64,000 bases of DNA from Eledone cirrhosa (taxonomy: Eukaryota), in contig OZ024748.1 in the NCBI GenBank assembly GCA_964016885.1, forward strand, positions 32,984,001-33,048,000. The letters run 5' to 3'. Both the position numbers and the translations under genes were made by a program. The notes beneath the pieces are model-generated. The model had not been told where the DNA came from. It saw only the letters and a program-made list of their open reading frames with translations, and made no database searches. Below, one piece after another: positions 6,040 to 64,000 of the stretch; the first letter of the stretch is position 1; every line of letters begins with the position of its first letter.

Positions 6040-7436
<1,397 letters not shown>

Positions 7437-7559: not shown

Positions 7560-8390
7560 ACATGACATACCCTGAGATGTTAAATGGTTAAGATTTAATC
7601 AAGGTAGTGATTAACCTAAGAGAAAATTTGACATATATACCCTAATTATGAGAAAATGAGAAAACGTAATAAATTCAATAGAGAATTAGTGAGTAAGAAA
7701 AACGTTGCTTAATGTAACAGTTATAGAGATTTTAAAATGTATGATACTACAATTTATCTAGGAAAACATCTCATGAATCATAACAGCCAGTGATAGCCCC
7801 TGGAAAAGGATTTATAGAGAGGGAAAGATAAAAGGGGGGGGGGTGATATATGCAGAAGGAGATTTTTCCCGAAAGTTAAACAGTTAATTTTGAAAATATT
7901 TAATTTATAATTTTAGGGTGAAGAATCAAGATTTCGGGATTTTTTTGCTGGTTATTTATATATTAGTTTTATAAATTCTATAAGTATCTTTACATTTCTA
8001 AGCTTCTGATTTTTATGAGGGTAACATTTAAAGGATTTAGCTGGTACATCAAGAATGAAATTTTATACTGTTGATTATTTTCCTAAATTTAAACTTTAAC
8101 AAAGATACCAACATATTAGGTATGTAAAGCTTTTGAAGTACTTATTGTTAGAAATATTTAAATAACGATTATGTATATAGATATATATTAATGAGCCAGT
8201 ATATTTTAGGTAAATAATAACGACGAAGATAAAAATAAAATAATAGATTGAGGCATGTTAAGGTTAAATATACACCTATATATAACTGGGTGTAAATGCA
8301 TTAATTATTCTTTAACGAAGATACCAACATATACATTGCTCCCAACTGGTTGAGCGCTTTTCTATACAATAGATTGCATATTCAATAAAT

Positions 8391-10665
8391 ATGGATTTCT
8401 TAAACTACCCGACTTCCCTCAAAGATATACCCATACATTCAAATGAAGAATACATGAAGAAAACTATCGAACAGACAAACTCTTTTATTAGAAGATTGAG
8501 ATGGAGAGCTTTTCATTTCGAAAATAAAGATGCTGAAAGAAAAACCAACAACAATCATTTTGAATCCTTATTTAAATCAAGAATAATTCCTCCATACAAC
8601 AAACTTCTGGGGGTTTTTGAAACAGAAATGCTCGATATAATCAAAAAAATTAAATTTAGGAAAAACCCATATATAGGTCACCAATACCTCAGAACTCTAA
8701 AAGATAAAATCACTGAAATAAAAAATGTTAACAAAGTACTGGGTAAATCGGACAAACCTAATAATTTATATGGGATAGGCAAAGATGAATATAACAACCT
8801 TTTGAAAGAACTTAGGAAAAACTACAAAAAAGCCCCGGCTGTGGATCTTACTGAAATTAATGAAGAAGCCTACAAATTAATTACCAATTTAGGAATAGAA
8901 GGAAGAACTGAGCCATTCTTACCTAGACAGCCGAGGATTAACCTGAAGGATCATAAAAGAAACTTTAAGGAAGAGATGCCAGTTAGACTGATTGCTCCAT
9001 CGAAATCGGATATAGGAGTAATCAGTAAAAACATCATAGATAGAATATTACCCACTCTTAAATTGAGATCTAATTTGAGATTATGGAAAGATACAAACGA
9101 GGTCATAGAATGATACACGAATATTGAAGATAAGAAAAACCATAAATTCATCCAGATGGACATTATTAGCTACTATTCTTCCATAACACCTAACCTTCTA
9201 AATAAGGCACTTTCATATGCTTATAAGCATACTGATCTAACCACGGATGAAATAGATATAATACTAACAGCCAGAAGAACTCTTATTAACTTCAATAACG
9301 AATATTGGATACGCTCAGATAGAGATAGAAACTTTGATATCACTATGGGGGCATCCGATTCCGCGCAAATCACAGATCTTCTGGGAATTTTCATATTAAA
9401 CATGATAAATAGAAAACTGCCGGAGATTACCGGTGGTTTATATAGGGAGGACATTTTATTTACGGTGGTCAAACACAACAATATAGAACTAAATAGAGTA
9501 AAGAAAAGTATAATAGAATTCTTTAAAACGTACGACCTTAAATTAGAAGTAGAAAATGGTACCAAAATAGTTAATTTCCTAGACGTTACCTTTAACTTAA
9601 ACACTGGCTTCTATTACCATTTTCATAGGCCCAATGAAAACTTAAACTATGTTAGTAACTATTCAAATCACCCTAGATCTGTAAAAAAAAGCTATAGTAA
9701 ATAGTGTGCAAAAACGTATTTATAAAATATCAGCCAATAAAGATATATTTGATGAAAACGTACAACAACGCATTAAAAAGAGCAGGATATATGAATAATA
9801 TAGAATATGTAGATAATAATAATCCAAGTATTATTCCTAATAATAATAATAAAAATAATAACATATAAGAGAAACTCTAATAATTATAATTCAAACACCC
9901 ATACGCCAAATAAATCGAGAATATGAACTAGATCTAAATCAGTCATATGGTTTGCACCCCCTCCCCCTGCTTCGTTCGCAGTTAAAACACCAATTGCAAG
10001 ATTATTCTTTAACGCTCTTGACACCTCTTTCCCTACTCAACATAAATACCATTCCATTTTTAATAGACATACCATTAAATTCTCACATTCTACAACTATG
10101 AACATGGCTCAAAACATTGCCAAATTAAACACTAAAATCCTAAAACCAAACCAGCATAATGATCCTAATAATAGAGTTAACATAAACAATACTAAACCAA
10201 AATGTAATTGTAGAAATAAAACTGATTGCCCTTTGCAAAATAATTGTCTAGATAGTAATTTCGTTTATAAATGCACCGTAAAAACTGATCACAACACATA
10301 CAACTACATAAGATCGACCTCTTCGACATTCAAAGCCCGATTTGCGAACCATAAATGCTCATTCTCGAACTCTAAGAGGAAATCATCCACGTCTTTATCA
10401 CAGTTCATATGGTCATTAAAAGAGAAAAATTTAAAATACTCCATTCTTTGGACAAAACTTCGGAACTATGGAATTTACCGCAACTCTAGTATATCAAATA
10501 ACTGCGCGCTATGTACAATGGAGACCCTGTTGATTATTAATAAATATGAGACCCTAATTAACAAAAAAAAGTGAATTATTCTCTAGTTGCCTCCATAAAG
10601 CTACGTCCACTTTTTTAGCCTCCCATAAAACGAGAAAAAAAGAGAGAATAACATTAAACCATTAA
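8391..10665 (+). pseudogene. PLE polyprotein (RT + GIY-YIG), disrupted
   Basis: SLKDIP, RLRWRAFHF, KSDK, MDIISYYSSI, FDITMGASDSA, GGLYRED, NFLDVTF, CNCRNKTDCPL; in-frame TGA at 9111 and frameshifts after about 9690. Confidence 0.9.
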
Positions 10666-12582: not shown

Positions 12583-12637
12583 CAAAAGAACATCTATTTT
12601 ATTAATATTTGTATTTTAATATATATATATGTGTATA

Positions 12638-13108
12638 TGTATACATATATGTATGTACGTATACATACTTATATTTAAGCAACAGCCGTACTAAGAGTGG
12701 GAAATGAAATTTCGTTTCATTTTTTCCGTTTATCGTTTTCGGTGCACCCGGCCGATTAACCCACTCGATATGCAAATTGGGCTACTCAGCCGTTAATATG
12801 CATACGTTCAACAATCTGGCAGGAAGGTATGCGTTGCTGACGATAGCTAATAAGCTTGAAACTAGTACAGCCTTCCTTTGTCAGTGTTGAACAAACGAGC
12901 AACGATGGTTGCTAGACACTACGGCTTAATACGGGATGTTTGTTTACAAACACACCGAGCATTATAATAAATGTTCGGTGAATCCATACGTACATATATA
13001 TATATGTGTGCATGTATGTATATATACATACTACTGTACGTCTGTATACATATATTTAAGTAACATCCGTACTAAGAGTGGGAAATGAAATTTCGTTTCA
13101 TTTTTTCC

Positions 13109-13113
<5 letters not shown>
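12638..13113 (+). mobile_element. Retrozyme-like non-coding HHR repeat (about 381-bp period, about 1.2 units)
   Basis: Terminal redundancy (ccgtactaagagtgggaaatgaaatttcgtttcat at 12686 and 13067); diverged homologue of the 472-bp unit at 47 kb; ends in (TA)n. Confidence 0.75.
12821..12877 (+). ncRNA. Minimal type I hammerhead ribozyme, core intact
   Basis: aggaag..gttg-CTGACGA-t-agct-aata-agct-t-GAAA-ctag-TA-cagc-cttcct. Confidence 0.85.
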
Positions 13114-22273: not shown

Positions 22274-25200
22274 ATGGCTGATATAAGAGTTGGGTGTCTG
22301 AATGTACGCGGCCTGGGACTGTCTTGGAAACAAGGCAAACTTTTAAACGATCTCAGGTCGCATAGAATGGATGTAATGGCTATTTGGGAGTCCAGGATCA
22401 GCAGCGAGCACCAACTGGCGCCCCTCTTCGATGACTTTGAGATCTTCGCATCTATCTGTCAACCGGTGGGTGGGGGTGGAGTTGTCGTTCTGCTGCGAAA
22501 ACACCTGGGCCTCGCCATACAGAAGGTGCACCTGGACCCGGAGGGTCGACTGGTGGTTTTAGACGTCGGCAGTAGTGAAAGTGGAGCCCTTAGACTAATT
22601 GGGCAGCACGGCCGGAATACTTCCAACGTCTGGAAACTTTTCTGGGAACGTCCCGCTCCTTGCTTTTAGTGGGGGACTGGAATGGTATCCTGGATGCACG
22701 TTGGGACTATGTAGAGGCATGTGCCAATAGAGGGGGGTGTAAAAGCCTCAAAAGGTTAATCGGCCGATTTGACCTGGCCGATAGATATCGACTAGATTTT
22801 CCGACTGTACCACTATGGACGTGGACCAATCGCAGCGGAACATCTAGGTTGAACCTAGATAGGGTCCTAGTTAGAGAGAAGGATAGGGACACATTTAGCT
22901 GTCCAAAAATGTTCATGGTTGACTATTCGGATCACAAGTTAGTGACCTGCATAGCCAACCTTGATAGAATCCATAGACAGGGACCCGGTTACTGGAAGCT
23001 GAACTTGTCCTTACCGACAAGCAAAGCTTACAGTAAACGGATTAGCACGTTAGTTAAGCAGAGTTTGACAGGGGCAATTGTCAACAACAGGTGGTGGAGC
23101 TCCCTTAAGAGAGCAATTAGAATAGAATCGATAGGTTTTAGTCAGGAATTAGCAAGGGATAGGAACAAGACGGAAAGGGAATTAGTAGATAGAGTAGAAG
23201 AGGCGATTAGGAGTGGCAATGTAGCCGGCGTGCTGGCATCAAGAATGGCCTTAGACCAGTTCTTTGAGGTGAAGCCTGAAGGCTGCGTTGTCAGGAGTAA
23301 AATACGTGCTCTGGGTAATGAGGGAGCCAAAGCTGTTAGCTGGGCCCGAGTGACAGAGGCAAAAAGTGGGAACAAGTCCACGATTCGGTCTTTGAAGGAC
23401 CAGGATGGGCGTGTGATCCTTGAACCTGGGCAGATGTGTGCGGCCTTTCAGCGGCACTTTGCACGACTGTTCGAGAGGGGCGCCGCGCCGGGTGAGACTA
23501 TGGATTTTAATCCATACCTCGACGGTCTGCCGCGCCTCTCGGTCGCGGAGGCGAAGTCCTGCGAAAGGACGATTTCAGCTGCTGAGATAGGGGCGGCGCT
23601 GAACCAATGCGGCAAACGCAAGTCCCCGGGTCTCGATGGGCTACCATACGAGCTATATGTAGCGATGCCGGACTTGTTCTCCGATATCCTCGAAGCGGTC
23701 TACTGCAACTGTCAGCAAAACGGGAGAATTCCCAGTTCTGTGACCAAGGGCGTAGTTACGCTGGTGAGGAAGGATGAGAACAAGGGGGATGTCATAAGTA
23801 ACTTCAGGCCCATAACTCTGCTAAATACAGAGTTAAAGATTTTGGCCAAGGTGTTAGCGAAGAGGTTGGCGCTTGTCGTCGGAAACCTGGTGGGAGAAGC
23901 GCAGACATGTGCAATCCCGTCCAGGTCCATTCACGACAATCTCCACCTTATGCGATACATCATAGAGAGGGTAGGGAATGAACCCGGCTTTGGTGGGGCC
24001 CTGATCAACTTGGATCAATCTAAAGCTTTCGATAGGGTTGACCATCGTTACCTGGATGCGGTGCTCGCGGCGGCAGGCTTCGGACCCGTTTTCAGGGGTT
24101 GGATTGCTGCGATGCACAGCAGCAACGTCTGCTCAAGGTTCAAGGTGAACGGCCACCTCTCGGAGCCGTTCCAAATCATGCGATCCATCCGACAGGGATG
24201 CCCTCTCTCCTCCCTTCTGTATGTGCTGGCTCTTGACCCACTACTGCGGAAGTTGGAGCGGTTGCAGGGCATCCCTTTGGAACCGGGATTGCAGAAAGCG
24301 GCGTCGGCCTACGCCGATGACGTGACAGTAATGGTGTCGAAAACCTCGCAAATCGGTGAGATCGGCACCTTACTGGAGGAATATGAAAGGTTTACAGGAG
24401 CCAAGCTGAACCGGGACAAGTCCGTCGGTTTGCAACTCGGAACATGGAGAGGCAAACCGATGCCCTCCAACGACGTCGTCGGACGCTGGACGGAGGGCCC
24501 GGTGAAGCTGCTTGGGGTCTGGTTCGGACCAGACCTCCAGGTGGAGAAAAACTGGAATGAGGTAACGGCCAGGGTGTTTTCACTCACCCAGAAGTGGGCC
24601 CAGTGCAAACTATCCCTGAAAGGTCGAGCGGAGGTGGCGAATACTTATATAGCATCCGTCATCTACTACCGCTTGACCGTCGTGCCTTGCCCAGTGAAAA
24701 GACTCGCCAAAATGGAGTGCGCGCTGTTCCAATTTCTTTGGAACAAGCGGACCCCTTTGGTGAGGAGATCCATCTGCTGTCAACACCCTTCGAAAGGAGG
24801 GCTGGGGATGCCGTGGCTACAGATGCGTAAACACGCATTAAGGCTACGGCACCTCCAGGTATTCCTCACCGGTCAACCGGTGTCGGCCCCGTTTGTGAGG
24901 CGAGCCTTTCCCAGACTCGTCTCGCTCACCGAGCTGCAATCCTGGGTCAAGCAAAGACCGAGAAAAGTGGGCGACTGGCACATTGAATGTGCCCAGGCGC
25001 TCACGGCCCTCTGGAAAGCGGACCTGGCAATCAGTGGAGACTCCACCTCGACATTCTATAGAGGGTTGGTACGCAACAGGTGCGACGATGCTCTCGGAGA
25101 AGCTCTAGGCATGGAGGAAGATGAACTGGCCAGTCTGTTCGGTAGGACGTTTGGCCCTGGGCCGATGGACAACTTCCAAAAGTCCCTGGCTTGGCAGTGC

Positions 25201-25690
25201 TACCGAGGGGCTCTACCCGTTCGAGACAAGCTCCACAGGCATGGGAGCCTGGGTAGGGATCCTTGGAATAAGATCTGTCCGAGATGCGTGCATGACGACG
25301 AAACCGTTGCGCACGCATTCGTACACTGCCCAGGCATTGCTGACCTGTGGGGCTATGTGGAACGACTACTGTCGAGGGTGGCACCAATCCGGTTGACCAC
25401 CGAGTCCATTGTCACGATCAAACCGCCTCCCCTTTTCAAAAACGAAGGAGAGTCGGTTTTTCTGTGTGATAGCCATGGCTAAAGAAGTTGTATGGTGGAC
25501 GAGGCTGAAAGGGCTGAGGTCAGACACCTTTCTCTCCGGCCAACAACTGGTCCCCTTTTTCAAATACCATTTTAAAAGAAGGATCAGAATGGAGAGAGAG
25601 GTGCTCTACCCCAGCAAGTTTTATGAAAGGTGGGTGAAAGTAGGGAGAATGGCCAGAGTGAATGGGTCTTCTCTCTATATCAGCCTGTAG
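22274..25690 (+). pseudogene. LINE ORF2 (APE endonuclease + RT + C-terminal zinc finger), two frameshifts
   Basis: LNVRGL, GDWN, SDH, GPGYWKLN, KSPGLDGL, FRPITLLN, DQSKAFDRV, IRQGCPLS, AYADDV, CPRC...ETVAHAFVHC. Confidence 0.93.
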
Positions 25691-29003: not shown

Positions 29004-32000
29004 CTACAGGCTGATATAGAGAGAAGACCCATTCACTCTGGCCATTCTCCCTACTTTCACCCACCTTTCATAAAACTTGCTGGGGTAGAGCACCTCTCTC
29101 TCCATTCTGATCCTTCTTTTAAAATGGTATTTGAAAAAGGGGACCAGTTGTTGGCCGGAGAGAAAGGTGTCTGACCTCAGCCCTTTCAGCCTCGGCCACC
29201 ATACAACTTCTTTAGCCATGGCTATCACACAGAGAAAAACCGCCTCTCCTTCGTTTTTGAAAGGGGGAGGCGGTTTGATCGTGACAATGGACTCGGTGGT
29301 CAACCGGATTGGTGCCACCCTCGACAGTAGTCGTTCCACATAGCCCCACAGGTCAGCAATGCCTGGGGAGTGTACGAATGCGTGCGCAACGGTTTCGTCG
29401 TCATGCACGCATCTCGGACAGATCTTATTCAAAGGATCCCTACCCAGGCTCCCATGCCTGTGGAGCTTGTCTCGAACGGGTAGAGCCCCTCGGTAGCACT
29501 GCCAAGCCAGGGACTTTTGGAAGTTGTCCATCGGTCCAGAGCCAAACGTCCTAACGAACAGACTGGCCAGTTCATCTTCCTCCATGCCTAGAGCTTCTCC
29601 GAGAGCATCGTCGCACCTGCTGCGTACCAAACCTCTATAGAATGTCAAGGTGGAGTCTCCACTGATTTCCGGGTCCGCTTTCCAGAGGGCCGTGAGCGCC
29701 TGGGCACATTCAATGTGCCAGTCGCCCACTTTTCTCGGTCTTTGCTTGACCCAGGATTGCAGCTCGGTGAGCGAAACGAGTCTGGGAAAGGCTCGCCTCA
29801 CAAACGGGGCCCACACCGGTTGACCGGTGAGGAATACCTGGAGGTGCCGTAGCCTTAATACGTGTTTATGCATCTGTAGCCACGGCATCCCCAGCTCTCC
29901 TTTCGCTGGGTGTTGACAGCAGATGGATCTCCTCACCAAAGGGGTCCGCTTGTTCCAAAGAAATTGGAACAGCACGCACTCCATTTTGGCGAGTCTTTTC
30001 ACTGAGCAAGGCACGACGGTCAAGCGGTAGTAGATGACGGATGCTATATAAGCGTTCGGCACCTCCGCTCGACCTTTCAGGGATAGCTTGCACTGGGCCC
30101 ACTTCTGGGCGAGTGAAAACACCCTGGCCGTTACCTCATTCCAGTTTTTCTCCATCTGGAGGTCTGGTCCGAACCAGACCCTAAGCAGCTTCACCGGGCC
30201 CTCCATCCAGCGTCCGACGACATCGTTGGAGGGCATCGGTTTGCCTCTCCATGTTCCGAGTTGCAAACCGACGGACTTGTCCCGGTTCAGCTTGGCTCCT
30301 GTAAACCTTTCATATTCCTCCAGTAAGGTGCCAATCTCACCGATTTGCGAGGTTCTCGACACCATTACTGTCACGTCATCGGCGAAGGCCGACGCCGCTT
30401 TCTGCAATCCCGGTTCCAAAGGGATGCCCTGCAACCGCTCCAACTTCCGCAGTAGTGGGTCAAGAGCCAGCACATACAGAAGGGTGGAGAGAGGGCATCC
30501 CTGTCGGATGGATCGCATGATTTGGAACGGCTCCGAGAGGTGGCCGTTCACCTTGACCCTTGAGCAGACGTTGCTGCTGTGCATCGCAGCAATCCGACCC
30601 CTGAAAACGGGTCCGAAGCCTGCCGCCGCGAGCACCGCATCCAGGTAACGATGGTCAACCCTATCGAAAGCTTTAGATTGATCCAAGTTGATCAGGGCCC
30701 CACCAAAGCCGGGTTCATTCCCTACCCTCTCTATGATGTATCGCATAAGGTGGAGATTGTCGTGAATGGACCTGGACGGGATTGCACATGTCTGCGCTTC
30801 TCCCACCAGGTTTTCGACGACAAGCGCCAACCTCTTCACTAAGACCTTGGCCAAAATCTTTAACTCTGCATTTAGCAGAGTTATGTGCCTGAAGTTACTT
30901 ATGTCCTCCCCCTTGTTCTCGTCGTTCCTCACCAGCGTAACTACGCCCTTGGCCACAGAACTGGGAATTCTCCCGTTCTGCTGCCAGTTGCAGTAGACCG
31001 CTTCGAGGATATCGGAGAACAAGTCCGGCATCGCTACATATAGCTCGTATAGTAGACCATCGAGACCCGGGGATTTGCGTTTGCCGCATTGGCTCAGCGC
31101 CGCCCCTATCTCAGCAGCTGAAATCGTCCTTTCGCAGGACTTCGCCTCCGCGACCGAGAGGCGCGGCAGACCGTCGAGGTATGGATTGAAATCCATAGTC
31201 TCACCCGGCGCACCGCCCCTCCCGAACAGTCGTCCAAAGTGCCGATGAAAGGCCGCACACATCTGCCCAGGTTCAAGGATCACACACCCATCCTGGTCCT
31301 TGAAAGACCGAATCGTGGACTTGTTCCCATTTTTTGCCTCTGTCACTCAGGCCCAGCTAACAGCTTTGGCTCCCTCATTACCCAGAGCACGTATTTTACT
31401 CCTGACAATGCAGCCCTCGTGCTTCACATCAAAGAACTGGTCTAAGGCCATTCTTGATGCCAGCACGCTGGCTATATTGCCACTCCTAATCGCCTCTTCT
31501 ACTCTATCTACTAATTCCCTTTCCATCTTGTTCCTATCCCTTGCTAATTCCTGACTAAAACCTATCGATTCTATTCTAATTGCTCTCTTAAGACTGCTCC
31601 ACCACCTGTTGTTGACAATTGCCCCTGTCAAACTCTGCTTAACTAACGTTCTAATCCGTTTACTGTAAGCTTTGCTTGTCGGTAAGGACAAGTTCAGCTT
31701 CCAGTAACCGGGTCCCTGTCTATGGGTTCTATCAAGGTTGACTATGCAGGTCACTAACTTGTGATCAGAATAGTCAACCATGAACATTTTTGGACAGCTA
31801 AATGTGTCCCTATCCTTATCTCTAACTAGGACCCTATCTAGGTATGACCTAAATGTTCTGCTACGATTGGTGCACGTCCAATGTGGTACAGTCGGAAAAT
31901 CTAGACGATATCTATCGGACAGGTCAAATCGGCCGATTAACCTTTTGAGGCTTTTACACCCCCCCCCCCCCTCTATTGGCACATGCCCCTACATAGTCCC

Positions 32001-34967: not shown

Positions 34968-35302
34968 ATCATCATCATCATTTTAAGTCCACTTTTCTCT
35001 GCTTCCAAGGGTGGGATGGGAACTGATTATGGGTTGATTTCTACAGCTAGATACCCTTGCTAACACCAACCTCATTTACAGTGAGTGCTGGGTGCTTTTT
35101 TGCCGTGGCACCTCCATGACCACTTTGCAGTGGAATGCTAGGGATGCCAGTCCTATCATCTCATTTCTACAGCTGAGTAAGCTGGAGCAATGTGAAATAA
35201 AGTGTCTTGCTCAAGGAAACAACACATCACCCGGTTTGAGAATTGAAATCACAACCTTTCGATTACAAGGTTAATGCTCTAACCACTAAGCCATGTGCCT
35301 CC
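34968..35302 (-). mobile_element. SINE family B
   Basis: Matches 52222-52586. Confidence 0.85.
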
Positions 35303-35747
35303 ATATATATATATATATTTATATCAAGCAAGAATTTGTTGGTGATTCCTCTCTCTTCCACAGAATCTCTGTATTGGACAATAAGACTCAGGACAGTGTC
35401 TCCTTCATATGTTGGACTACCTCAACTCCAACGATCCTCTCACAGGTAAGTACATATCAATCAAAGGTGGAGGTGAACTAATTATCAAAGTACTTCAACA
35501 TCTTTTTAACTGTTTTATCACTACAGGAAAAAAGCCCAGACATGTTCAAGAAGGCATTGATAGTTGTACTCTACAAAAAGGTAGCAGACTTGATTGTGGG
35601 AACTATTGTCCTATCAGCCTACTAACCCTTTAATGTTCAAACCGGCCAGACTTCTCTACCTCTTTCTGTTGAAACTGGCTGTAACTGGCCACTCAAACTG
35701 ATGTTATGGTATTGTTCTCAAAATAAATACTTTCAAAATCTCATAGA

Positions 35748-37551: not shown

Positions 37552-40500
37552 TCAGGGTTGTGCAGAATTTGCTGTGTTTGTGTCGGGCAAAGTTATTGGT
37601 GAGTCTGCTGGAGAAACGGTGGGTACTGGTGGCAATTCCTGTTCTATGAACGCTTTTTTTAAACGATCAATGGAGACAGTATTTCGTTTCCCGTTCAAGT
37701 CGAGGACGAAATACTTAGGGCATTTCTGTATCACCTTATAGGGCCCGGAATACGGCGGACGAAGTTGCGATGGAATACCGTCATTTCTAACGAAAACATG
37801 CGTCCATGTATCGATGTCTTTTGGTATGTGTGAAGTAACGTGCTGTTGTTTAGGGGCTGAAGGAGACAGATGCGACATCGATGACCGTAAACGGTGCACA
37901 TATTTTGTAGGGTCTGGAAGTTCTTGTGGCGAAACAGGAGCAATCATTTGTCCGGGTAGAGTGAGTACGGTGCCATACACCATTTCAGCCGGAGAATGTC
38001 CGACTCCCTCCTTAACAGTGGAACAAATACCAAGAAGAATGAGTGGGAGGTATTCAAACCAGTTAGTGGAGTCTTCGTAAGCCTTGATAGATGATTTTAG
38101 CTGGCGGTGTAAGCGTTCTACCATGCCGTTAGCGACAGGGTGATATGCTGTTGTACGGATGTGTTTGCACCCGAGGAGACGAGTCAGCTCGGTAAATAGG
38201 TGCGAATCGAACTGACGTCCTCTATCCCTAGTGATGGTCGCGGGTGTGCCGAAACGCAAAACCCAGTGAAACACTAGCGTTTTGGCGACAGTTTCCGCAG
38301 TAATATCCGTCAGGGGAAAAGCTTCTGCCCAGCGAGAAAATCGGTCAACACAGGTGAGAAGATGAGTGTAGTTGTGAGAAGGAGGCAAAGGTCCAACGAT
38401 GTCTATATGCACATGTTGGAACCGTGCATCAGGTGTTGCGAAAGAACCGATTGGGGCTTTGATGTGCCGGTGAATTTTTTCGCCTTCTGGCACGCGATAC
38501 AGTTCCTATCCCATTCGCGGGTGTCCTTGTTGATGTTGGGCCACACAAAGCGGGCAACCAACAGTTTCTGCGTGGCGCGGACGCCAGGATGTGCCAGAGA
38601 ATGCAGTGCCGAGAAAACGTTGCGTCGATGTTTCCGGGGCACGTATGGAAACTCCTGGCCTGTGGAGATGTCGCACCAAATATAACCCGAAGAAGAGGGC
38701 AGCGGGCATTCCTTCAATTTCAAGGATGATTTCCGGAGTTGCAGCAGTTCCTCGTCATTCTGTTGATCTGCTGCAATCTTCTGGAGGTCGATAGTGGCAG
38801 TGGTGTGGATTGCGTTAATCTCCATGCGCGATAGGGCATCAGCTGCTGAGTTGGTTTCACCCTTAATGTACCGAATATCAGTAGTGTACTGAGAAATGAA
38901 GTCCATGTCGGACCTCCCTGGGTGAGTGTCGGTCTGACTTGGCATTGAACGCGAACACTAGTGGTTTGTGGTCGGTGTATATAGAGAACACACGACCTTC
39001 TAGCATGTGGCGAAAATGCTTGACAACAAGGTATGCTGCCAATAATTCACGACTGAATGTGCTGTACTTAGTTTCGGCGGGTTTTAATCGCTTAGAGAAA
39101 AAAGATACAGGTCGCCAAATATCGCAAGAGAGTTGGTGAAGCACACCTCCAACTCCGAAATCGGATGCATCAGTCAATAAACACATTAGGGCGTCACGTT
39201 TGGGGTAACTCAGCATTGTAGCCTCGGACAACATTTTCTTCAACTCAGCGAAAGCGGTACATTCTTTTTCGCTGAGCTTGATGTTTGCGTTTTTGGTTGT
39301 ACGCTGCCGCAGCAAATCTGTGAGGGGTTGGGCTGTCTCTGCACAGTGGGGTATAAATCTTCTGTAGAAGTTTACCAGGCCAAGAAATTCTCGCAGTTTG
39401 CGGAGAGATGTAGGTTGTGGAAAATCAATGATGGATTTGACTTTCTCCTTAAGTGGGCGAATACCATCTTTGTCAATGATGTGTCCCAGAAAATGAAGGG
39501 ACGCAACTCCGAACTCACATTTGCTGGGGTTGATAACAATTCCGTATTCACGCAAACGTGTGAATAGGAGATCCAGGTGTTTCTCATATTCTTCATCGGA
39601 GCTGCTGGCCACCAGTAAGTCGTCAATGTATGCGTATACAAAAGGTAGACCTCTGGTGACTGTATCGATGAATCGCTGGAATGTCTGCGCTGCATTTCGC
39701 AAACCGAAAGGCATACGCAGAAATTCGAACATTCCAAAGGGTGTTGTGACTGCGGTCTTTGGAATATCTGCGGGCTCAACGGGTATCTGATTGTAAGCTC
39801 GCACAAGATCGATCTTCGAAAATATGCGAGCCCCGTGCAGTGAGCTAGAGAAGTCCTGTAGATGAGGCGCTGGATAAGAGTCAGGAACGGTGCAGTTGTT
39901 TAGTGCATGGTAGTCGCCACAGATTCGCCAGTTGTTCGACGACTTCTTGGGTACACAGTGTATGGGTGAGGACCAGTTGCTGCTGGACGGACGTATGATG
40001 CCGAGATCCAGCATGTGCTGAAATTCTTGTTTGACGGACTTCAGCCGGTCTGGTGGTAGCCTTCTAGGTCGTGCAGCGACAGGTGGGCCGTGTGTTTTTA
40101 TGTGGTGTGTGACGTCATGTTTTACAGGGCAAGCGTTGAATAGTGGTCGAGTTACGTCTGGGTATTTGTTGATGATGTGGTTGTGCCGAGTTGTTGTCGA
40201 TCGTGAAATGACTGGACTGACTGTGGCTGTCCTAGCGGCTATGCTGCGCACAGCGAGACCAGTGGAGTTGTCAACGAGTCGTTGGTTTTTCAGATCCACT
40301 AGCAGCGAGAAGTACTGAAGAAAATCAGCTCCTAAAATAGAGGTCGGCAGCTTAGCCACAACGAATACCCACTGGAAAGTGCGGCGTAGTCCCAAATTTA
40401 GTGTCAGGGACTGTTCTCTGTAGGTCGGAATATCTGAGTGATTCACCGCCTGGAGCCAGGCTGGTGTCTCTCTCCTTTTTCCAGGAACGCAGGAAACCGG

Positions 40501-40620
40501 GATGATGCTCACTTCAGCACCGGTGTCGACCAGGAAACGCGTGCCTGTGACGCGATCCTGAATAAAAAATAGGCGACTTTGGTTATGAGGGCCAGAAACG
40601 TCTGTCGCATTCAGTTTCTG
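37552..40620 (-). pseudogene. Gypsy pol (protease, RT, RNase H, integrase), frameshifted
   Basis: [40 protein letters not shown]...[28 protein letters not shown]. Confidence 0.95.
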
Positions 40621-41464
40621 GCTGTGTCGTTTCCCTGATTTGTTTTCGAAACAAAGGAACAGGGATGGCTGCACTTTTGCGCTTATCTCCCGAATCTTTG
40701 GTGGTACCAACACATTTCTGGTGAATCTCGAGATGCGCTGGGACTTCTTGAGCGACCACCAAATCGGCGAGTTCGACTGTTGGACCGACGCGTGGCAGGG
40801 TAGCCCAGTGACAAGGCCTGAATTTGTTGCATCAAGGCCTGTATCTGTGTTGCTTGCTGTGCCAGTAACTGGTGTAGATCGGGCATCTCTGTGGCACTGG
40901 AGGGCTGAAGGAAAGGATTGGCGGAAGGCACGGCTGGCGTCACATTCGCTATTTTTGAGTGCGGATGTGGTACCTCCATGATCTTATCTGCCAGCTCAGC
41001 GAGTTCTTCTATGGTGGTGGACTCCCTGGTGGATGCTAGTACAACTTGTGTGGCAGAAGGTAAACGCTGGAGGAAGAGTTGCTTGAACATTTCATCCGGG
41101 AGTTTATGTTCACCCAGAAGCTGCTTCATTCTCCGTAGGAGTTGCGTCGGCTTTTTATCTCCTAATTCCTCCGATATGAGGAGCTGGTGCAAACGTTTCT
41201 GCTGCGACTCCGACGTCCGCTTAACTAATGTTCTTTTAAATGTGTCATATGACACAGAGCCTGGTGGTGCTAAAATGAGGTCTGGAACCTCATTCATAAT
41301 CTCCGGAGACATCGAATCGATGAGATGTGTGAAACGGGATGCCTCGCTAACGATCCGGTTCGATGCGAACTGCGCTTTGATGTGCAGAATGGTGGAATCC
41401 TTAATATAAATGCCGCCCTGACTGCCATTTCTGCTGCTGATGAATCTTCGTGTGCTAGAGACAT
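40620..41464 (-). pseudogene. Gypsy gag, disrupted
   Basis: [37 protein letters not shown] (CHCC-type knuckle). Confidence 0.88.
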
Positions 41465-41503
41465 TGTTTGTAGAGGATGATCAGAAGGTTGTGTGTCTGT
41501 TTT

Positions 41504-44429: not shown

Positions 44430-44744
44430 TTCTTCTTCTTCTCTCTCTCTCTCACACATTTTCTCTTCCCCTCTCTCTAGAAAGTCAGATCCTTTCTCAA
44501 CCATGGAACCATGTATTACTTGATGTCCCGTTTAGGAATCACAAAATGTCAGATTTCTCTGACCCTATACTTTCACTCATCATCAAGGTAAAGTCTCCCT
44601 TTATTTATATCCCTGCTTTGTGTGGTTGGTGTTAGGAAGGGCCTACAGCTGTAAAATACCCAACAGTCCTCACCGGAGCAAAGCACAATGGGGGCTAACT
44701 ATGGCCAGACTCTGCCTCCTTCACTGTGTTTATCACCAGAACTA

Positions 44745-45087
44745 TTATCATCATTAACATCATCATTTTACGTCCGCTTTTCTCTGCTTGCAAGGGTGGG
44801 ATGGGAACTGATTCTGGGTTGATTTCTACAGCTAGACGCCTTTCCTAACACCAACCTCATTTACAGTGAGTGCTGGGTGCTTTTTTGCCGTGGCACCTCC
44901 ACGACCACTTTGTAGTGGAAGATAGGGACCCCAGTCCTATCATTTCATTTCTACAGCTGAGTACATTGGGGCAATGTGAAATAAAGTGTCTTGCTCAAGG
45001 AAACAACACATTACCCGGTCTGAGAATTGAACTCACAACCTTTCGATTGCAAGGCCAATGCTCTAACCACTAAGCCATGTGCTTCCA
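44745..45087 (-). mobile_element. SINE family B
   Basis: Sequence match. Confidence 0.85.
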
Positions 45088-45171
45088 TATAATATATATA
45101 TATATATACATAAAAGATTAAAAAAAAAGATGGTATGTTCACAGCCACTCTATGAAGATCTGTAGAATAGA

Positions 45172-46752: not shown

Positions 46753-47279
46753 ATCTATATACATACATATATCTATAAATGCATACATATATCTATATAT
46801 ACATACATATATCTATATATACATACATATATCTATATATACAAATATATATATATATATCTATATATACATGCATATATCTATATACATACATATATCT
46901 ATATACATATATACATATATCTATATATACATACATATATCTATATATACATACATATATCTATAAATACATAAGTTGAAAAAAATGAAAACGAAATTTC
47001 ATTTCTCACTCTTAGTATGGCACTTACTTAAATGTAAGTATGTATGTATACGTACATACATATATGTATACAAACGTACAGTAGCATGCATATATATATA
47101 TATCCATATATATATATATATATATACATACAGGTACACATACATATATGCACGCATCAGTTTAGCGGACGCTTATTATAACGCCGCTTTGTTCGTTTGT
47201 AAACAAACTGAACAGCCTGAATTTATGCCATACGGTGTTAAGGCAACCACGTCACCTTTTTGTTCAACACTGACACAGG

Positions 47280-47324
47280 AACGATGTACTAGTTTCAAGC
47301 TTGTTAGCTATCATCAGCACCGTT
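47280..47324 (-). ncRNA. Minimal type I hammerhead ribozyme, intact
   Basis: aacggtg-CTGATGA-t-agct-aaca-agct-t-GAAA-ctag-TA-catcgtt. Confidence 0.9.
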
Positions 47325-47751
47325 TACCCATCTGCCAGATAGTTGAACGTTCGAAAGTATATACTTTCCTTATGAAAATTAACGGCTGAGCAGCCTAATT
47401 TGCATAATGAGTGAGTTAAATCGGTCAGGCATACCGAAAACGATAAGTTGAAAAAAATGAAAACGAAATTTCATTTCTCACTCTTAGTATGGCACTTACT
47501 TAAATGTAAGTATGTATGTATACGTACATACATATATGTATACAAACGTACAGTAGCATGCATATATATATATATCCATATATATATATATATATATACA
47601 TACAGGTACACATACATATATGCACGCATCAGTTTAGCGGACGCTTATTATAACGCCGCTTTGTTCGTTTGTAAACAAACTGAACAGCCTGAATTTATGC
47701 CATACGGTGTTAAGGCAACCACGTCACCTTTTTGTTCAACACTGACACAGG

Positions 47752-47796
47752 AACGATGTACTAGTTTCAAGCTTGTTAGCTATCATCAGCACCGTT
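47752..47796 (-). ncRNA. Minimal type I hammerhead ribozyme, intact
   Basis: Identical to 47280-47324. Confidence 0.9.
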
Positions 47797-48070
47797 TACC
47801 CATCTGCCAGATAGTTGAACGCTCGAAAGTATATACTTTCCTTATGAAAATTAACGGCTGAGCAGCCTAATTTGCATAATGAGTGAGTTAAATCGGTCAG
47901 TGCCATACTAAGAGTGAGAAATGAAATTTCGTTTTCATTTTTTTCAACTTATCGTTTTCGGTATGCCTGACCGATTTAACTCACTCATTATGCAAATTAG
48001 GCTGCTCAGCCGTTAATTTTCATAAGGAAAGTATATACTTTCGAACGTTCAACTATCTGGCAGATGGGTA

Positions 48071-48115
48071 AACGGTGCTGATGATAGCTAACAAGCTTGA
48101 AACTAGTACATCGTT
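48071..48115 (+). ncRNA. Minimal type I hammerhead ribozyme, intact
   Basis: CTGATGA 48078-48084; GTA 48106-48108. Confidence 0.9.
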
Positions 48116-49389
48116 CCTGTGTCAGTGTTGAACAAAAAGGTGACGTGGTTGCCTTAACACCGTATGGCATAAATTCAGGCTGTTCAGTTTGTTTACAAAC
48201 GAACAAAGCGGCGTTATAATAAGCGTCCGCTAAACTGATGCGTGCATATATGTATGTGTACCTGTATGTATATATATATATATATGGATATATATATATA
48301 TGCATGCTACTGTACGTTTGTATACATATATGTATGTACGTATACATACATACTTACATATAAATACATACATATATCTATATATACATACATGGCTGCC
48401 AACTCGTTTTCGCGTACGGCCACTACATTATATCCATGTAGGAGAACTCCTACGGATGCGCTGAACGAGTATGACTTTTTAGTCCAGCCAGCAACTTGAA
48501 AACTCTGGTACAAACACTACACTTGTGACAATTATTGACACATAGTGCTGGGCCCATGGTACCATGTGACGACAAGTGCAGAGAGATATCCAGATATAAA
48601 GCAATGCCTGTGTCATGAAGCTTTTATAGTGAGCAAAGGCACTGCACAAAGCCAGTCCCACTCTCTTAACCAAGATGATATTTACCAAAAAGAAGAACAA
48701 GTCAACATCATTGGATACCATCAGGGTTGCAGGTGTTATATCAGAGTTTTCCTTCTCCTAGAATTCTGCCTTGACAAAGGCTAAGGGGTCATCTCATACA
48801 TATATCTATAAATACATACATATATCTATATATACATACATATATCTATATATACATACATATATCTATATACATACATATATCTACATACATATATACA
48901 TGTGCGCGTATATCTGTGTATATATAATGACCCATAAACTGTTCACTTTCCTGACATTTGTACATTATTCTATGTACTATACATGCACCTTTGATGAGTT
49001 GTAGTGCATCTGAGCACTGTACACAATAATTTTGTTTACTACAAGACACCGGCAGGTGCAAACTACCCCCTCTCCCCAACTACCGACCCGTGGGGTCAGT
49101 TCGCTTTCATTCTCGACGTACCTATACAGAAATTTAGCCTGACAGACCCACCCCACCTTCAAAAACCCTGTAAAATCTACTCACAATAGCCGGATAATCA
49201 GTTGGTCATTCCCCTCCACTGGAAAGAACGATTGATTTTTCCTCTTCGCCGCCATCTTGCAGAACAACACAGACTTGCAACGACACCTATAAACACGGGT
49301 TCTGAAACCGGTTACCTCCCCTTACGCTTACTGGCTGGCTTACCGGTCGGTTGATATGCTAGAAATAGCAGTCAAATCTCCATCATAAT

Positions 49390-52221: not shown

Positions 52222-52586
52222 TCATCATCACATATCATATATCATCATCACATATCATCATCATTTTATGTCCGCTTTTCCCTGCTTGCAAGGGCGGGAT
52301 GGGAACTGATTCTGGGTTGATTTCTACAGCTGGATGCCCTTCCTAACACCAACCTCATTTACAGTGAGTGCTAGGTGCTTTTTTGCCGTGGCACCTCCAC
52401 AACCACTTTGCAGTGGAATGATAGGGACCCCAGTTCCTATCATCTCATTTCTACAGCTGAGTAAACTGGAGCAATGTGAAATAAAGTGTCTTGCAAAAGG
52501 AAATAACACATCACTCGGTCTGATATTTGAACTCACAACCTTTCGATTGCAAGGCCAATGCTCTAACCACTAAGCCATGTGCTTCC
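52222..52586 (-). mobile_element. SINE family B, full length (tRNA head, CORE-like centre, RTE-type tail)
   Basis: A box tggcttagtgg, B box gagttcaaat, (ATG)n tail. Confidence 0.88.
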
Positions 52587-52597
52587 ATAAAAGTAAA

Positions 52598-52711
52598 CGC
52601 TTACAGCACCTAGGGTTCCCAAGCGGTCACCAATCTAAGTAATAACTAGGCTCGACGTTGCTTAACTTCGGTGATCAGACAAGAACTGGTGTTTTCAGCG
52701 TAATATGGCCG
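52598..52711 (-). pseudogene. 5S rRNA pseudogene (lacks the first ~5 nt)
   Basis: cggccatattacgctgaaaacacc...gatcaccgaagttaagcaacgtcgagcc...gtgaccgcttgggaa...gtgctgtaagc followed by a T run; several substitutions. Confidence 0.88.
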
Positions 52712-52803
52712 ATATATATATATATAACGAAGGAAATGTGGTAAGGAAACAGGTGGACCATAACGCACCAAAGTACTCAATACTTAGGGTAGTAGAGTGG
52801 GTA

Positions 52804-52920
52804 ATAGGAACAAGTAGGACCCCGACGGCTAAGCTCAAGCCGCTTCGATGGCTAATTCTGGTCCAGAATTAGCCGTCGAAACGGCTTGAGCTCAGCCGTC
52901 GGGGTCCTACTCGTTCCTAT
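52804..52920. repeat. 117-bp palindrome built from the 3' half of a hammerhead
   Basis: Centre 52862; right arm GAAAC-ggct-tgagctc-agcc-GTC-ggggtcc. Confidence 0.85.
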
Positions 52921-52926
52921 ATATAT

Positions 52927-53040
52927 AAGTTTTAATATAGATGAGATTCTACAGGACTAGAACTGTTTCATTCTTTAGAAAACATCAGCTAAAGAATGAA
53001 ACAGTTCTAGTCCTGTAGAATCTCATCTATATTAAAACTT
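52927..53040. repeat. 52-bp inverted repeat of the 5531-family HHR 3' half
   Basis: Arms 52927-52978 and 52989-53040, 10-nt spacer. Confidence 0.88.
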
Positions 53041-53105
53041 TTATACTCTGCAATGTATTGAGTACCTTACTTACTGTGGTTACCTCCGATTCAACCTGGA
53101 ATAAC

Positions 53106-53474: not shown

Positions 53475-53850
53475 AACAGTCTTATAAATAGATAGATTCG
53501 ACATACCTTTCAACTTCGACTTCTATTTGAAAAGTTGATTTGGTAGTGAAAACATATTAGGGACAGTTATAAAAAGAAAGAAAGAAAAACGAAGAAAAAG
53601 AAGAAATGCATGCAACTAAATAGAGAGAGATAGATATAGAGAGATAGATAGAGAGAAGAAATTCATGTAAAGAAACAGAGAGAGATATATAGAGAGAGGA
53701 AAAAAACACAGAGGGAGATAGATAGAGAGAGAGAGAGAGAAGAGAGGAGAGAGAGAGAAAATATAGAGAGATAGATATAGATAGAGATAGAGAGAAAGAA
53801 ACTAGGTAATTGGGCACCAGTTGAATGACGTATCAATGATATATTTATTT

Positions 53851-55094
53851 CAGGTAACTGACCTTGTAGGCCTAATTATAATCAATTCGCTGCATAGGAA
53901 AATACCCGGTGCTACCGGAGGTTTATATAGAGATGACATGCTTTTACTTATTGAAAATAATAACTCTGAACTAAATAGAAAAATAAAACAAATTACACAA
54001 TTTTTTAATTACTTTAATCTAAAAATAGAAATTGAGAATAACCATAGAATAGTCAATTTCCTAGACGTAACATTAAATCTCAACACATGTCTTCACTATC
54101 CATTTCACAAGTTGAATGAAAACTTAAACTATGTCAGTTTTAACTCTAACCACCCCAGATCTGTTAAAAATACTATAGTGAACTCTGTTCAAAAACGTAT
54201 CTCTAGAATCTCTTCCAATAAAAAGATTTTCGACGAAAAAGCCCAGTATTACAATGAAGCGTTAGCTAGAGCAGGATATAGTGATAAAATTATGTACATA
54301 GATAATAATAGACAAACTAACCAAAATAACAACAATTTTAATTACGGCAACAACTTTAACAACTATAATAGAAAGCATTACAATAATTCCAAAAGCCAAA
54401 AAAGAAATAGAACTAGGAATATAATATGGTTTGCCCCCCCTTTCTCACTAAACATTAAAACCCACATCGCTAAACTATTTTTTAATGCTCTTGATAATCG
54501 CTTCCCTAGAACACATAGGTATCACTCAATTTTCAATAGACATACTATAAAATTAACTTACTCATCCACCAAAAATTTAGCACAAAATATTAATAGAATA
54601 AATAATAAGAATCTAAAACCTAGCCAAAATACCGATAATAGCATAAATAATATCCAAGTAAACAAATGTAACTGTAGAGATAGATCTAAATGTCCGTTAA
54701 ATAACAATTGCTTAGTTAAAAATATAATATACAACTGTAATGTTAAAACGGACTTAAATTCTTTTAACTATGTTGGTTCCACCTCGACAGAATTTAAACT
54801 TCGCTATAATAACCACAAGAATTCTTTCACAGATCCAAGCAAAAATCCTCAACATCACTATCAGGCCTACTCTGGCAACTTAGGCATGATAACGTTGGAT
54901 ATTCAACGGCTTGGAATATAGTCTCAAGAGGGATTCCTTTTAATTCATCCTCTGAGACATATGACCTCTGCGCGGAGGAGATATTCTTTATACTAAAATC
55001 TAAAAATTCCCTTAATTTACGGACAAATTTATTCAGTTGCTGCAGACATAGATTGAACTCAACTTTTAAATATAAATATAAATTTAAAATGTAG
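53851..55094 (+). pseudogene. PLE RT (from motif B/C) + GIY-YIG, frameshift near 54845
   Basis: GGLYRDD, NFLDVTL, SNHPRS, CNCRDRSKCPL, IIY...YVGST...RYNNHK. Confidence 0.92.
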
Positions 55095-56878: not shown

Positions 56879-56963
<85 letters not shown>

Positions 56964-56966
<3 letters not shown>

Positions 56967-57510
56967 GATTCTACAGGACTAGAACTCTTTCATTCTTTAG
57001 AAATCATCAGGAATCTGGGTATCAAAAAATAAGTATGGTATTTATAGGTCTCTTCAGGTGGTAGGAGAGGGTAGGGAGTTGGATGGGTGTAGGTCGTTGG
57101 TTGATAGAAAAGGGAATTCATTAAAAGCTAATTCTTCAAAGCTATAGTTTATTTTTATTTTTAGAGTAACAAAGGCAGAAAAAATTCTGTAAACAAGTTC
57201 AGGATGGGGTGCCACTCCTTATTTTTAAGTTTCTCTTAAGCTAACAGGTGTCTATAAGATTATTGGGGGTCAGTCATGGTTGATGGATTTAAAGAAAAGG
57301 GAGATTCTTTAAAAGCTAAATTCTTTAAGGTTCTACTAAGTGACAAAGGCCTAGAGAATTCTATAGACCAATTCAAAATATTGAGTGCATATCATACGAT
57401 TATCTTCAAATTTCTCTTAAACTATTCAACTATATGCCAAAAATCAACAGACACAATTACAAACACACTCACTCACACACTCATGCGCACCCACACACAC
57501 ACATATATAC
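56964..57510 (-). mobile_element. PLE 3' remnant with HHR (56966-57016, stem III mismatch)
   Basis: Homologous to about 5531-6070. Confidence 0.7.
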
Positions 57511-57519
57511 ATATATATT

Positions 57520-58208
57520 GGAGTGAAATTTTAGTAATTTAATTTTATAATTTTCTTATTTTACGTCTCTCATATTATTGTTCTGCATCCCCATGCATTG
57601 AACCACAAAGTTACTAAGACAAAACCTATATATTTGCTAGCATAGGTATGCATCTGTGTATATATATGTTACTAGATATACTAATTCTTTATAATTATCT
57701 CCAAATTATTTTGTCGAGCAAAAATTGGCCAAAACTGCTACTATTGTAACGGTCCGGCTGCTGTCTTCTTAACAAACAACTCTTCACTGATTGACCTCGA
57801 TGTCACGTGATTGATTCTTTTGAATTTGCCACCGACGCAGTAGGCAGTGATTTTTTCAATGGCTTGGAACTTAGTCCACGCTTTGCTTTTTTCCATCCAC
57901 TGAATTATTTTTGTATAAGTTCCCTGTGTCCACGTATTGCCTGGAAACTTAGCTGAGAATAGACTTCCCTGATGACGAAAGGCTTCTCCGTACGTTTCTT
58001 CGGAAACTATGTTTATTCCCTTTCAGAAACTAATTAGTTGGAGTGAAATTTTAGTAAGTTAATTTTATAATTTTCTTATTTTACGTCTCTCATATTATTG
58101 TTCTGCAACCCCATGCATTGAACCACAAAGTTACTAAGACAAAACGTATATATTTGCTAGCATAGGTATGCATCTGTGTATATATATGTTACTAGATATA
58201 CTAAATCT

Positions 58209-58215
<7 letters not shown>
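57520..58215 (+). mobile_element. Second retrozyme-like element: 520-bp unit plus 176-bp terminal repeat
   Basis: 57520-57695 is repeated at 58040-58215; HHR at the unit junction; (TA)n flanks. Confidence 0.7.
57963..58044 (+). ncRNA. Type I hammerhead with extended stem II
   Basis: acttcc-CTGATGA-c-gaaagg...(gtttc-TTCG-gaaac)...cctttc-a-GAAAC-taatta-GTT-ggagt. Confidence 0.75.
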
Positions 58216-58302
<87 letters not shown>

Positions 58303-58578
58303 CATATATACATATACACACACATATATATACACATACACATACATACATTCATTTTACATTCATTTAATTTATTAATTTATTATTTGTGTGACCCGAA
58401 TTTTCCTGGTCGTTTTTTCGGCTGTGCGAATGATTTTAAGCATTGTCTCTATGTGTTGGTATTTAAACGATAGTTATAGCTCTGGTTTACCCAAACTTTT
58501 GAGCCCTCTACCACACATTTCGAAGATTGTGTCTCGTGATTTCGTGGGCCGAGATTCCGATTCTCGATTATTTATTTG

Positions 58579-59508: not shown

Positions 59509-60177
59509 ATGCAGGCAGGTGCTATAGAAGTGGTGGATAGCTTCCGGTACCTAGGAGATCAGATTAGCATGGGAGGGGAGTGTTGTGAGGCCATAGTATC
59601 TAGAATAAAGACGGGTTGGAAGAAGATTAGCGAGCCGCTTCTTCTTCTGACGAAGAAGGGTTTCTCCCTGCGTACGAAAGGCCGGTTATATGATGCCTGT
59701 GTGAGGAACGCGATGCTGCATGGTAGTGAGCCATGGGCAGCAACTGCAGAGGATATGTGACGGCTGGAGAGAAATGAGGCAAGGATGCTCCATTGGATGT
59801 CCAATGTCAATGTGCGTGAATGACCCAGCATGGATGTGTTGAGAGAGAAACTGTGTCTGAGAAGAATAGAATTTAATGTACGAGAGAGGAGACTGCAGTG
59901 GTGTGGACATGTGATGCGCATGGAGGATAACCGATGGGTAAAGAAGTGCCAGGAAATGCCAGTTGAAGGAAGACGTTGTAGAGGTAGACTACGAAAAACA
60001 TGGGTGGAGGTGGTGAGAACAGACCTCAGATCGCTGAAGCTCACGGTGGAGATGACGAAGGACCGTGACAAGTGGAGAGATGCTGCGCTGAATAAGACCC
60101 GTCCCACCCTTGCAAGCAGGGAAAAGCAGACGTAAAATGATGATGATGAAAATGATGATGATGAAAATGATGATGAT
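59509..60177 (+). mobile_element. RTE-clade LINE 3' fragment
   Basis: EVVDSFRYLG, KGRLYDACVR..MLHGSE, RRLQWCGHVMRM, GRRCRGRLRKTW, DRDKW; (ATG)n tail. Confidence 0.88.
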
Positions 60178-63099: not shown

Positions 63100-63730
63100 A
63101 CACATAGAAGTGGTTGATAGCTTTTACAATCCAGGTGACTTAATTAGCAGTGGAGAAGGCTGCCCTGAAAGATGAATAGCTAGAATAAGGATAGGATGGA
63201 AAAAGTTTAGAGAGCTACTGCAACAGTTGACCACAAAAGGTTTCTCTCTCTGTACAAAAGGATGACTGTATGACACATGTGGGCGATGCATGTTAACTAA
63301 ACAAGGTCTGTGACTGCAGAGGATATCTAGACTGGAGAGAAATGAAACAACCATGCTTTGTAGGATATGTTATGAAAGTGTGAGAGAAAGGCAGAGTTTG
63401 GACAAGTTCAAGAAGAAGCTGGGTTTAAGAGTGATCTGAAGTGGTGTGTAAGAAAAAAGACTGCGTTTGTACGACATGTGATGCACATGGATAATGACCA
63501 CTGGATGATGAAGTGCCAGGAAATCCCAGTAGAAGGAAGCCATAGTAGAGGCAGCCCAAGAAAGACCTGGACAGAGGGTGTGTGAACTGACTTCAAATCA
63601 CTGACTCTCACAGAGGAGATGACAAAGGAGCACGACAAGTGGAAAGATGCCATGTTGAGAAGGACCTGTCCAACCAAGCAAGCATGGAAAAACGGACATA
63701 AAAACAGTGATGATGTTGGTGAAGATGACG
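63100..63730 (+). mobile_element. Older RTE LINE 3' fragment
   Basis: Diverged homologue of 59509-60177. Confidence 0.8.
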
Positions 63731-64000
63731 TACATGTACACACATACATAATCAAACACAGATTTGCATATACTTATATACAAACATATACATGGACACA
63801 CATTTCTACACACATACATTCACATATATATAGTGTATGTCAATTCTGAACAATAGTTTTCTCAGCACAAGTCTTGGTTACAACTTCTACAAATAAAATG
63901 AAAGGAGAAGAATTTCTCAGTAAAACAGTTTTATTCGAAATATTAACATTGGTGGCACTATTTTGGGTGAGTGATATGGTTTTTATCTTGTCTAATTGTG

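Follow-up and report, generated by a model that had tools for sequence, protein, structure and literature searches.

Positions 57520–58215 of the window hold an element that is best read as a non-autonomous Penelope-like, retrozyme-type insertion in a TA tract, the RNA template of which likely began at an end cut by its own ribozyme (probability about 0.6). The window is the whole stretch of Eledone cirrhosa DNA that was analysed, with a length of 64,000 nucleotides (contig OZ024748.1, positions 32,984,001 to 33,048,000), an AT-rich, animal-type DNA that is rich in TA/CA microsatellites and retroelements. What is directly observed is the repeat structure, the hammerhead motif, a left end in register with the predicted cut, the TA target and a very large family. 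The coordinates of the features are collected in Table 1.

Table 1. Features of the element, its flanks and the Penelope-like element (PLE) regions of the window.
Feature	Position	Strand	Basis or remark
Left target piece, CA/TA tract of ~19 nt	57500..57518	.	adjoins hammerhead-bearing repeat 56961-57517
TT at left junction, common with U16-U17 at 58038-58039	57518..57519	+	sequence
5' copy of 176-nt repeat (pseudo-LTR)	57520..57695	+	first base is the base after the predicted cut
Unique non-coding middle of 520-nt unit	57696..57962	+	stops in six frames
Type I hammerhead motif	57963..58044	+	core, stems, descriptor search
Hammerhead stem I, 5' strand	57963-57968	+	3' strand 58040-58044
Hammerhead core CTGATGA	57969-57975	+	followed by C.A mismatch
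Hammerhead stem II GAAAGG/CCTTTC	57977-57982/58019-58024	+	6 bp around 36-nt insert
5-bp cUUCGg hairpin (gtttc-TTCG-gaaac) within loop II insert	57994..58007	+	
Hammerhead GAAA	58026-58029	+	second core half
Hammerhead stem III, perfect palindrome ACTAATTAGT	58029-58038	+	sequence
Hammerhead GTT, U17 at 58039	58037-58039	+	predicted cut 58039^58040; sequence
3' copy of 176-nt repeat	58040..58215	+	extends 176 nt beyond the predicted cut
Right target piece: (TA)n, then mixed CA/TA	58216..58346	.	sequence
Decayed Hydra-clade-like PLE ORF regions	4039-5202, 8373-10574, 53806-55082		mutual resemblance

The element (696 nt) consists of one 520-bp unit followed by a 176-bp repeat, corresponding to 1.34 units, which confirms what an earlier note on this DNA had described. 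The direct repeats (57518–57695 and 58038–58215, 178 nt including a common TT) have a spacing of 520 nt and are 98% alike, with four differences over the 176 nt (57538/58058, 57588/58108, 57626/58146 and 57685/58205), and the internal junction between the repeat units is seamless. The GC content is 35.6%. Stops are present in all six frames, neither of the two element peptides tested has a Pfam match, and the element contains no open reading frame (ORF) for a reverse transcriptase (RT) with a GIY-YIG endonuclease. The 3' end of the second repeat copy is likely the point where reverse transcription started, a role suggested by analogy with the system described in PMC11167929.

Two LTR-like direct repeats with 98% identity might in principle be left by a tandem duplication at the DNA level, or by an LTR-type element made up of a solo unit with 176-bp LTRs, in either case without ribozyme processing. 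Such an origin is very improbable, as the repeats show no TG...CA ends, both ends of the element lie within a split microsatellite, and the hammerhead straddles the repeat boundary. In addition, other copies of the family end elsewhere into (AT)n, and a second family in the window (12620–13113 and 46971–48366) has the same partial-tandem layout.

By sequence, the ribozyme candidate conforms to the type I hammerhead definition (CUGANGA, GAA, NUH and three helices, with stem I open). Stem I comprises 4 bp, or 3+2 bp with a bulge, the two core halves are 50 nt apart, and the usual first pair of stem II is a C.A mismatch, as it is in PLE-X1_cBra. A search with a hammerhead descriptor detects the motif in the element but in 0 of 3000 dinucleotide shuffles of it, and gives 10 matches in the window versus none in 40 shuffles. 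The Rfam hammerhead models do not detect it, either at the gathering threshold or at E≤10; Rfam returns 12 sub-threshold matches, chiefly of microRNA models on TA runs. The octamer at 58037–58044, to which the hammerhead had been assigned earlier, is the cut-site part of a motif that extends over 82 nt from 57963, and the stem II that had been called long is a helix of only 6 bp, behind the mismatch, although the UUCG hairpin reported with it is indeed present in the insert that this helix closes. When the 50-nt insert is shuffled 20000 times, the hairpin arises twice, a frequency that applies to a hairpin picked post hoc, and the loop II insert differs between family contigs. Positions 57995–58013 in this insert resemble 58021–58039 (ttc-g/a-gaaacta...gtt), in a manner suggestive of a partial duplication of the 3' half of the ribozyme. 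An 8-bp helix of 57957–57964 with loop II was considered as a pseudoknot or switch and was rejected, as it occurs at chance level (1129 of 2000 shuffles).

In the folding predictions the active hammerhead fold is a minor state. The predicted pair probability of stem I is 0.19 in the local fold and 0.001 in the whole element, and the stability of the local 96-nt fold is not unusual (z 0.13). The palindrome of stem III is predicted to form a duplex at -9.0 kcal/mol. Dimeric action has been proposed for PLE hammerheads in which the palindromic stem III is short (PMC4209133, PMC6765202), and one PLE hammerhead is protein-assisted (PMC11167929). Action as a dimer or with the help of a protein would fit the prediction that the active fold is seldom occupied. 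The activity of PLE hammerheads in vitro is described as low (PMC4209133) and their function has been called unclear (PMC8557442); for Xenopus retrozyme dimers, eight of nine are reported to show no cleavage in vitro.

The proposal of the earlier note that GUU represents CpG decay of GUC finds no support. Such decay is possible at the cut site because a G comes next, but it is unneeded, because 10 of the 26 Hydra ribozymes in the published set are cleaved 3' of a U. This figure is from our own tally over the Hydra-clade hammerhead rows in File S2 of PMC8557442 (26 rows, one of them a duplicate, in the available part of the source), in which the cut position is occupied by T in 10 rows, by A in 12 and by C in 4; in 9 of the 10 rows with T, the next base is not G. 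The 520-nt unit contains 14 CpG dinucleotides with an observed/expected ratio of 0.86. Among the family variants listed (40 of 94 rows), 13 are C>T or G>A changes, of which 2 are in a CpG context, and no listed variant is located at 58039.

The target is a microsatellite. To the left of the element lies a different hammerhead-bearing repeat (56961–57517, minus strand). The second copy of this repeat, at 5526–6086 (82% alike), enters a CA/TA tract at the corresponding position, so that a tract was likely present before the element inserted and was split by it. No target-site duplication is discernible at the element. The placement between (TA)n tracts given earlier is correct for the long (TA)n on the right, whereas the left side offers just the short mixed tract.

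At the left junction, position 57520 corresponds exactly to 58040, the base directly 3' of the predicted cut. Of the two preceding bases, T57518 extends the TA alternation and T57519 does not, while both match the two U's that precede the cut. Since this TT is common to both sides, the true start lies at -2 to 0 (an ambiguity of 0–2 nt), so that the start right after GTT put forward earlier holds for the register and less strictly for the base itself. The TT may reflect either microhomology or an untemplated base. Reverse transcriptases tend to add untemplated bases. T57519 matches U17, a base that is absent from the cleaved 3' product, and would be either untemplated or a sign that copying passed the scissile bond.

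Because its start lies within two bases of the predicted cut, the element is likely a copy of self-cut RNA. If starts were uniform over 520 positions, the chance of such a coincidence would be 0.002, 0.006 and 0.010 for one end at tolerances of 1, 3 and 5 nt, and 0.02, 0.06 and 0.10 over 11 ends at the same tolerances. Apart from the element, the 5' side was traced by eye for 11 copies or fragments in the window that bear a hammerhead, and none of them starts at its own cut; nine start at about -28, -38, -141, -210, -247, -440, -545, -549 and -806, and two ORF-linked copies at -505 and -807 or beyond. These copies belong to other families and therefore lower the prior without refuting a start set by cleavage. 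A single copy cannot show that the cut set the start of the element. The earlier view that cleavage had set the 5' end is thus plausible at the chance level of this one end, but it is weakened by the larger chance over the 11 ends, by T57519, by the starts of the other copies and by weak signs of family starts at +11 to +28.

The same points bear on an ordinary PLE 5' truncation of uncut RNA, in which the enzyme stalled at a folded or protein-bound hammerhead or the end was joined to the TA tract through the TT microhomology, in which case the coincidence of start and cut would be uninformative on cleavage. T57518 and T57519 match the template upstream of the cut, the chance over 11 ends is ~0.06, and the other window copies and the weak family signs place starts elsewhere. 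Moreover, partial tandems that are truncated at the 5' end are common among PLE insertions (PMC8557442), and uncut RNA is the main substrate of PAc (PMC11167929). Against this stand the chance of just ~0.6% for the single junction and a superior TA microhomology (TAATTA) a few bases further upstream of the cut, which has been left unused. We therefore regard truncation of an uncut template as unlikely, though a possibility of some weight.

For a template that began at the cut, the following course of events can be envisaged. A source locus with at least two units would be transcribed, and the upstream hammerhead site would be cut, with the palindromic stem III pairing two hammerheads or with a PLE protein helping the folding, while the downstream site would be left uncut. 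The endonuclease/reverse transcriptase of a Hydra-type PLE would nick the (TA)n target, and copying would start inside the RNA, ~176 nt into the second unit, by analogy with PAc (PMC11167929). The enzyme would then pass the uncut ribozyme and run off the 5'-OH end, and an untemplated base or 1–2 nt of microhomology would yield the junction TT. Since a single ribozyme is left, the resulting copy is likely a dead end that would give no RNA of unit length. Against this course of events stands Anolis PAc, for which PMC11167929 describes insertion without a need for hammerhead cleavage and no RNA reads that start or end at the cut; the Xenopus dimers that did not cleave in vitro, the rarity of the active fold in prediction and the failure to find an autonomous partner in the sequences searched count against it as well. 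The difference between T at 57588 and A at 58108 is a family polymorphism, T>A making up 35–40% of the summed depth at 57588, which weakly hints at a template in which the two units were already different.

A unit-length RNA of 520 nt, cut at both ends, could also have served, either as a circle copied 1.34 times or through a template jump between monomers from a 5' end to a 3' end. The seamless internal junction accords with this possibility, animal retrozymes make abundant circles (PMC7229834), and the model has been put forward for PLE tandems (PMC4209133). However, a closed circle offers no reason to stop at the junction, an end-to-end copy of a unit-length RNA gives 520 bp and not 696, and the repeats differ at the family-polymorphic site, although this last point is weak. 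Furthermore, the circular unit folds only ~1 SD better than 40 shuffles (-98.7 versus -92.1 ± 5.9 kcal/mol), and with 520 nt it exceeds the 170–400 nt of animal circles (PMC7229834). A unit-length template is accordingly improbable. As a closed circle has no end at the cut site, the coincidence would favour a linear cut RNA, if anything, over the circular RNA that the earlier note had considered. Its broader claim of a retrotransposed copy of a ribozyme-bearing RNA is supported by the partial tandem, the (TA)n target, the ribozyme resembling those of Hydra PLEs and the large family. The relative weights given here to the three readings of the template are a matter of judgement.

Four public sequencing runs carry the sequence, three from one sample (X1–X3) and one from a second organism (X4), none of which is recorded as RNA. 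The contigs gathered on 57440–58062 number 2887 in X1, 2826 in X2, 2734 in X3 and 2 in X4, figures that are not copy numbers. In X1, 757 contigs are at least 99% identical, 822 are at 95–99%, 979 at 90–95% and 329 below 90%, which shows that the family is very large and moderately diverged. Among the loose-end rows listed (19 of 392), all five readable loose ends from 57965/57968 in X1–X3 (six rows) keep TGATGACG and have a diverged insert. In X3, 17 contigs leave the family sequence at +56 into (AT)n, which is an alternative 3' end of the family. The loose-end consensus of X1 has TA-like letters before ~+14 (18 contigs, agreement 0.69), a weak sign; the counterpart row of X2 reads as family sequence. 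In X4, a head-to-head junction of two family copies, at ~+14 and +28, is present in one contig of depth 2.5. Together these ends weakly suggest family copies that start at ~+11 to +28. An X4 contig of depth 2 contains an extra A after the cut, with which stem I would be a perfect 6-bp helix if the upstream strand is unchanged. Contig joints that go back 520 nt were considered as circle junctions and rejected, being continuations into the second repeat beyond the stretch compared. Scans of metagenomes gave no match with one pattern and two with another, viral contigs gave none and prokaryote genomes one; these three matches, of 23–25 nt and devoid of further similarity, were rejected as relatives and attributed to chance.

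The element works like an animal non-LTR retrozyme or a non-autonomous PLE. With animal non-LTR retrozymes (PMC7229834; bioRxiv 10.64898/2026.07.22.740005) it shares the absence of coding capacity, a low GC content (below 45–50%), a type I hammerhead, a unit of a few hundred nucleotides, a high copy number and the coexistence with PLEs. Its unit is above the range of 170–400 nt given in PMC7229834 and within that of 51–972 bp given in the preprint. Unlike those retrozymes, the element spans 1.34 units, carries one complete ribozyme, has 50 nt between the core halves and is known from DNA alone. Active non-LTR retrozymes have two or more tandem units, every one with its own complete hammerhead; because a single complete hammerhead is present at the element, it does not have the status of an active two-ribozyme retrozyme at this locus.

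The resemblance to the Hydra-clade PLEs (PMC8557442; PMC4209133) includes the partial tandem with its pseudo-LTR, the hammerhead close to the 3' end, the (TA)n insertion and the variable 3' ends, features that characterize a non-autonomous PLE derivative. The hammerheads of that clade likewise have a mismatch flanking stem II, a palindromic stem III of 3–4 bp and frequently GUU, and their cut site lies ~100–210 nt from the 3' end, compared with 176 nt here (PMC8557442). In contrast to the Hydra-clade PLEs, the element is devoid of an RT or endonuclease ORF, and its loop II has 36 nt versus about 3–10 nt in the Hydra rows (PMC8557442). PLE-X1_cBra also has the core CTGATGAC...AGAA, and loops II that are long are found in PLE-X rows and in two rows from Selaginella (PMC8557442 File S2). 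A link to Naiad through the published 'half-core' spacing of 35–50 nt was rejected, as no similarity to two octopus Naiad 3' ends is apparent by eye in the available sequences.

R2 (PMC3774820) is a precedent for a retrotransposed copy with a 5' junction set by self-cleavage, the joints showing variable microhomology, although R2 is an autonomous LINE with an rDNA target and an HDV-like ribozyme downstream of its cut. Plant LTR retrozymes are also hammerhead-based and have two direct repeats around a non-coding middle; as described, both of their LTRs contain a complete type III hammerhead, and they carry a primer-binding site, a polypurine tract and 4-bp duplications, whereas the element has no type III hammerhead in its repeats but one type I motif across the repeat boundary.

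Taken as a single locus, the element is nothing out of the ordinary within a known class. As it belongs to a very large family with at least one copy that starts at the predicted cut, the cleavage of PLE hammerheads in vivo becomes testable through junction counts in one assembly, for which the element is a good test case. In the open literature, seen largely below full text, we found no animal PLE or retrozyme for which genomic 5' ends coinciding with the hammerhead cut are reported; the supplements of the 2026 preprint may bear on this. It is conceivable, though rather doubtful, that the family is a hyper-abundant PLE parasite with starts in excess at the cut, so that thousands of junctions would record self-cleavage, in the germline in vivo, of a PLE-type hammerhead with an unusual 36-nt loop II, and would show that the cut sets the 5' end of a linear template copied from an internal start.

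The three PLE ORF regions of the window bear the marks RWR, DKP and CxCX5C (by eye against the Hydra-1_Obim protein), which are listed for the Hydra clade in section 11 of PMC8557442; none of the five PLE ORFs submitted to Pfam scores above the cut-off. Two of the ORFs are flanked by inverted hammerhead-bearing repeats (7450–8312/11759–12622 and 53353–53850/56085–56647), which have different 3' tails within one insertion (+49 and +138). The element has no sequence in common with the three regions, tblastx against the PLE ORFs gives no match, and no similarity to an autonomous PLE terminus is found within the window. The available part of the consensus supplement of PMC8557442, compared with nine short motifs and in one part by eye, likewise shows no similarity; an autonomous partner that shares the sequence of the element was thus not found in the window or in that supplement.

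The second non-coding hammerhead family comprises a 472-bp tandem with two motifs and an inverted third copy (46971–48366) and a partial tandem that is 70–74% alike (12620–13113). Its starts are not at the cut, and it fits an active two-ribozyme retrozyme better than the element does. At 52918–53045, two hammerhead fragments of the 5526/56961 family form a head-to-head inversion, in which the first base of one fragment is precisely the C of the CTGA core. Long near-perfect inverted duplications are present at 7250–7436, centred on (TA)n, and at ~52820–52910. A CTGACGA...CGAAA match at 59647 fails the descriptor and was rejected as a hammerhead; it lies inside one of two decayed LINE 3' fragments (59524–60169 and 63104–63736), which are 68% alike and have (TGA)n-type tails. 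A match to 5S rRNA (52599–52716, minus strand, 75 bits) lies beside a TA run, and the adjoining 52240–52592 is repeated at 34971–35305 and 44743–45092. A nested cluster extends over 18095–45108; it includes L1/Tx1-like elements with ORFs at 22594–25482 and 29004–31346 (motifs by eye), a Gypsy-like element (37552–41480, minus strand, motifs by eye) and a 72-bp minisatellite that recurs at six places or more.
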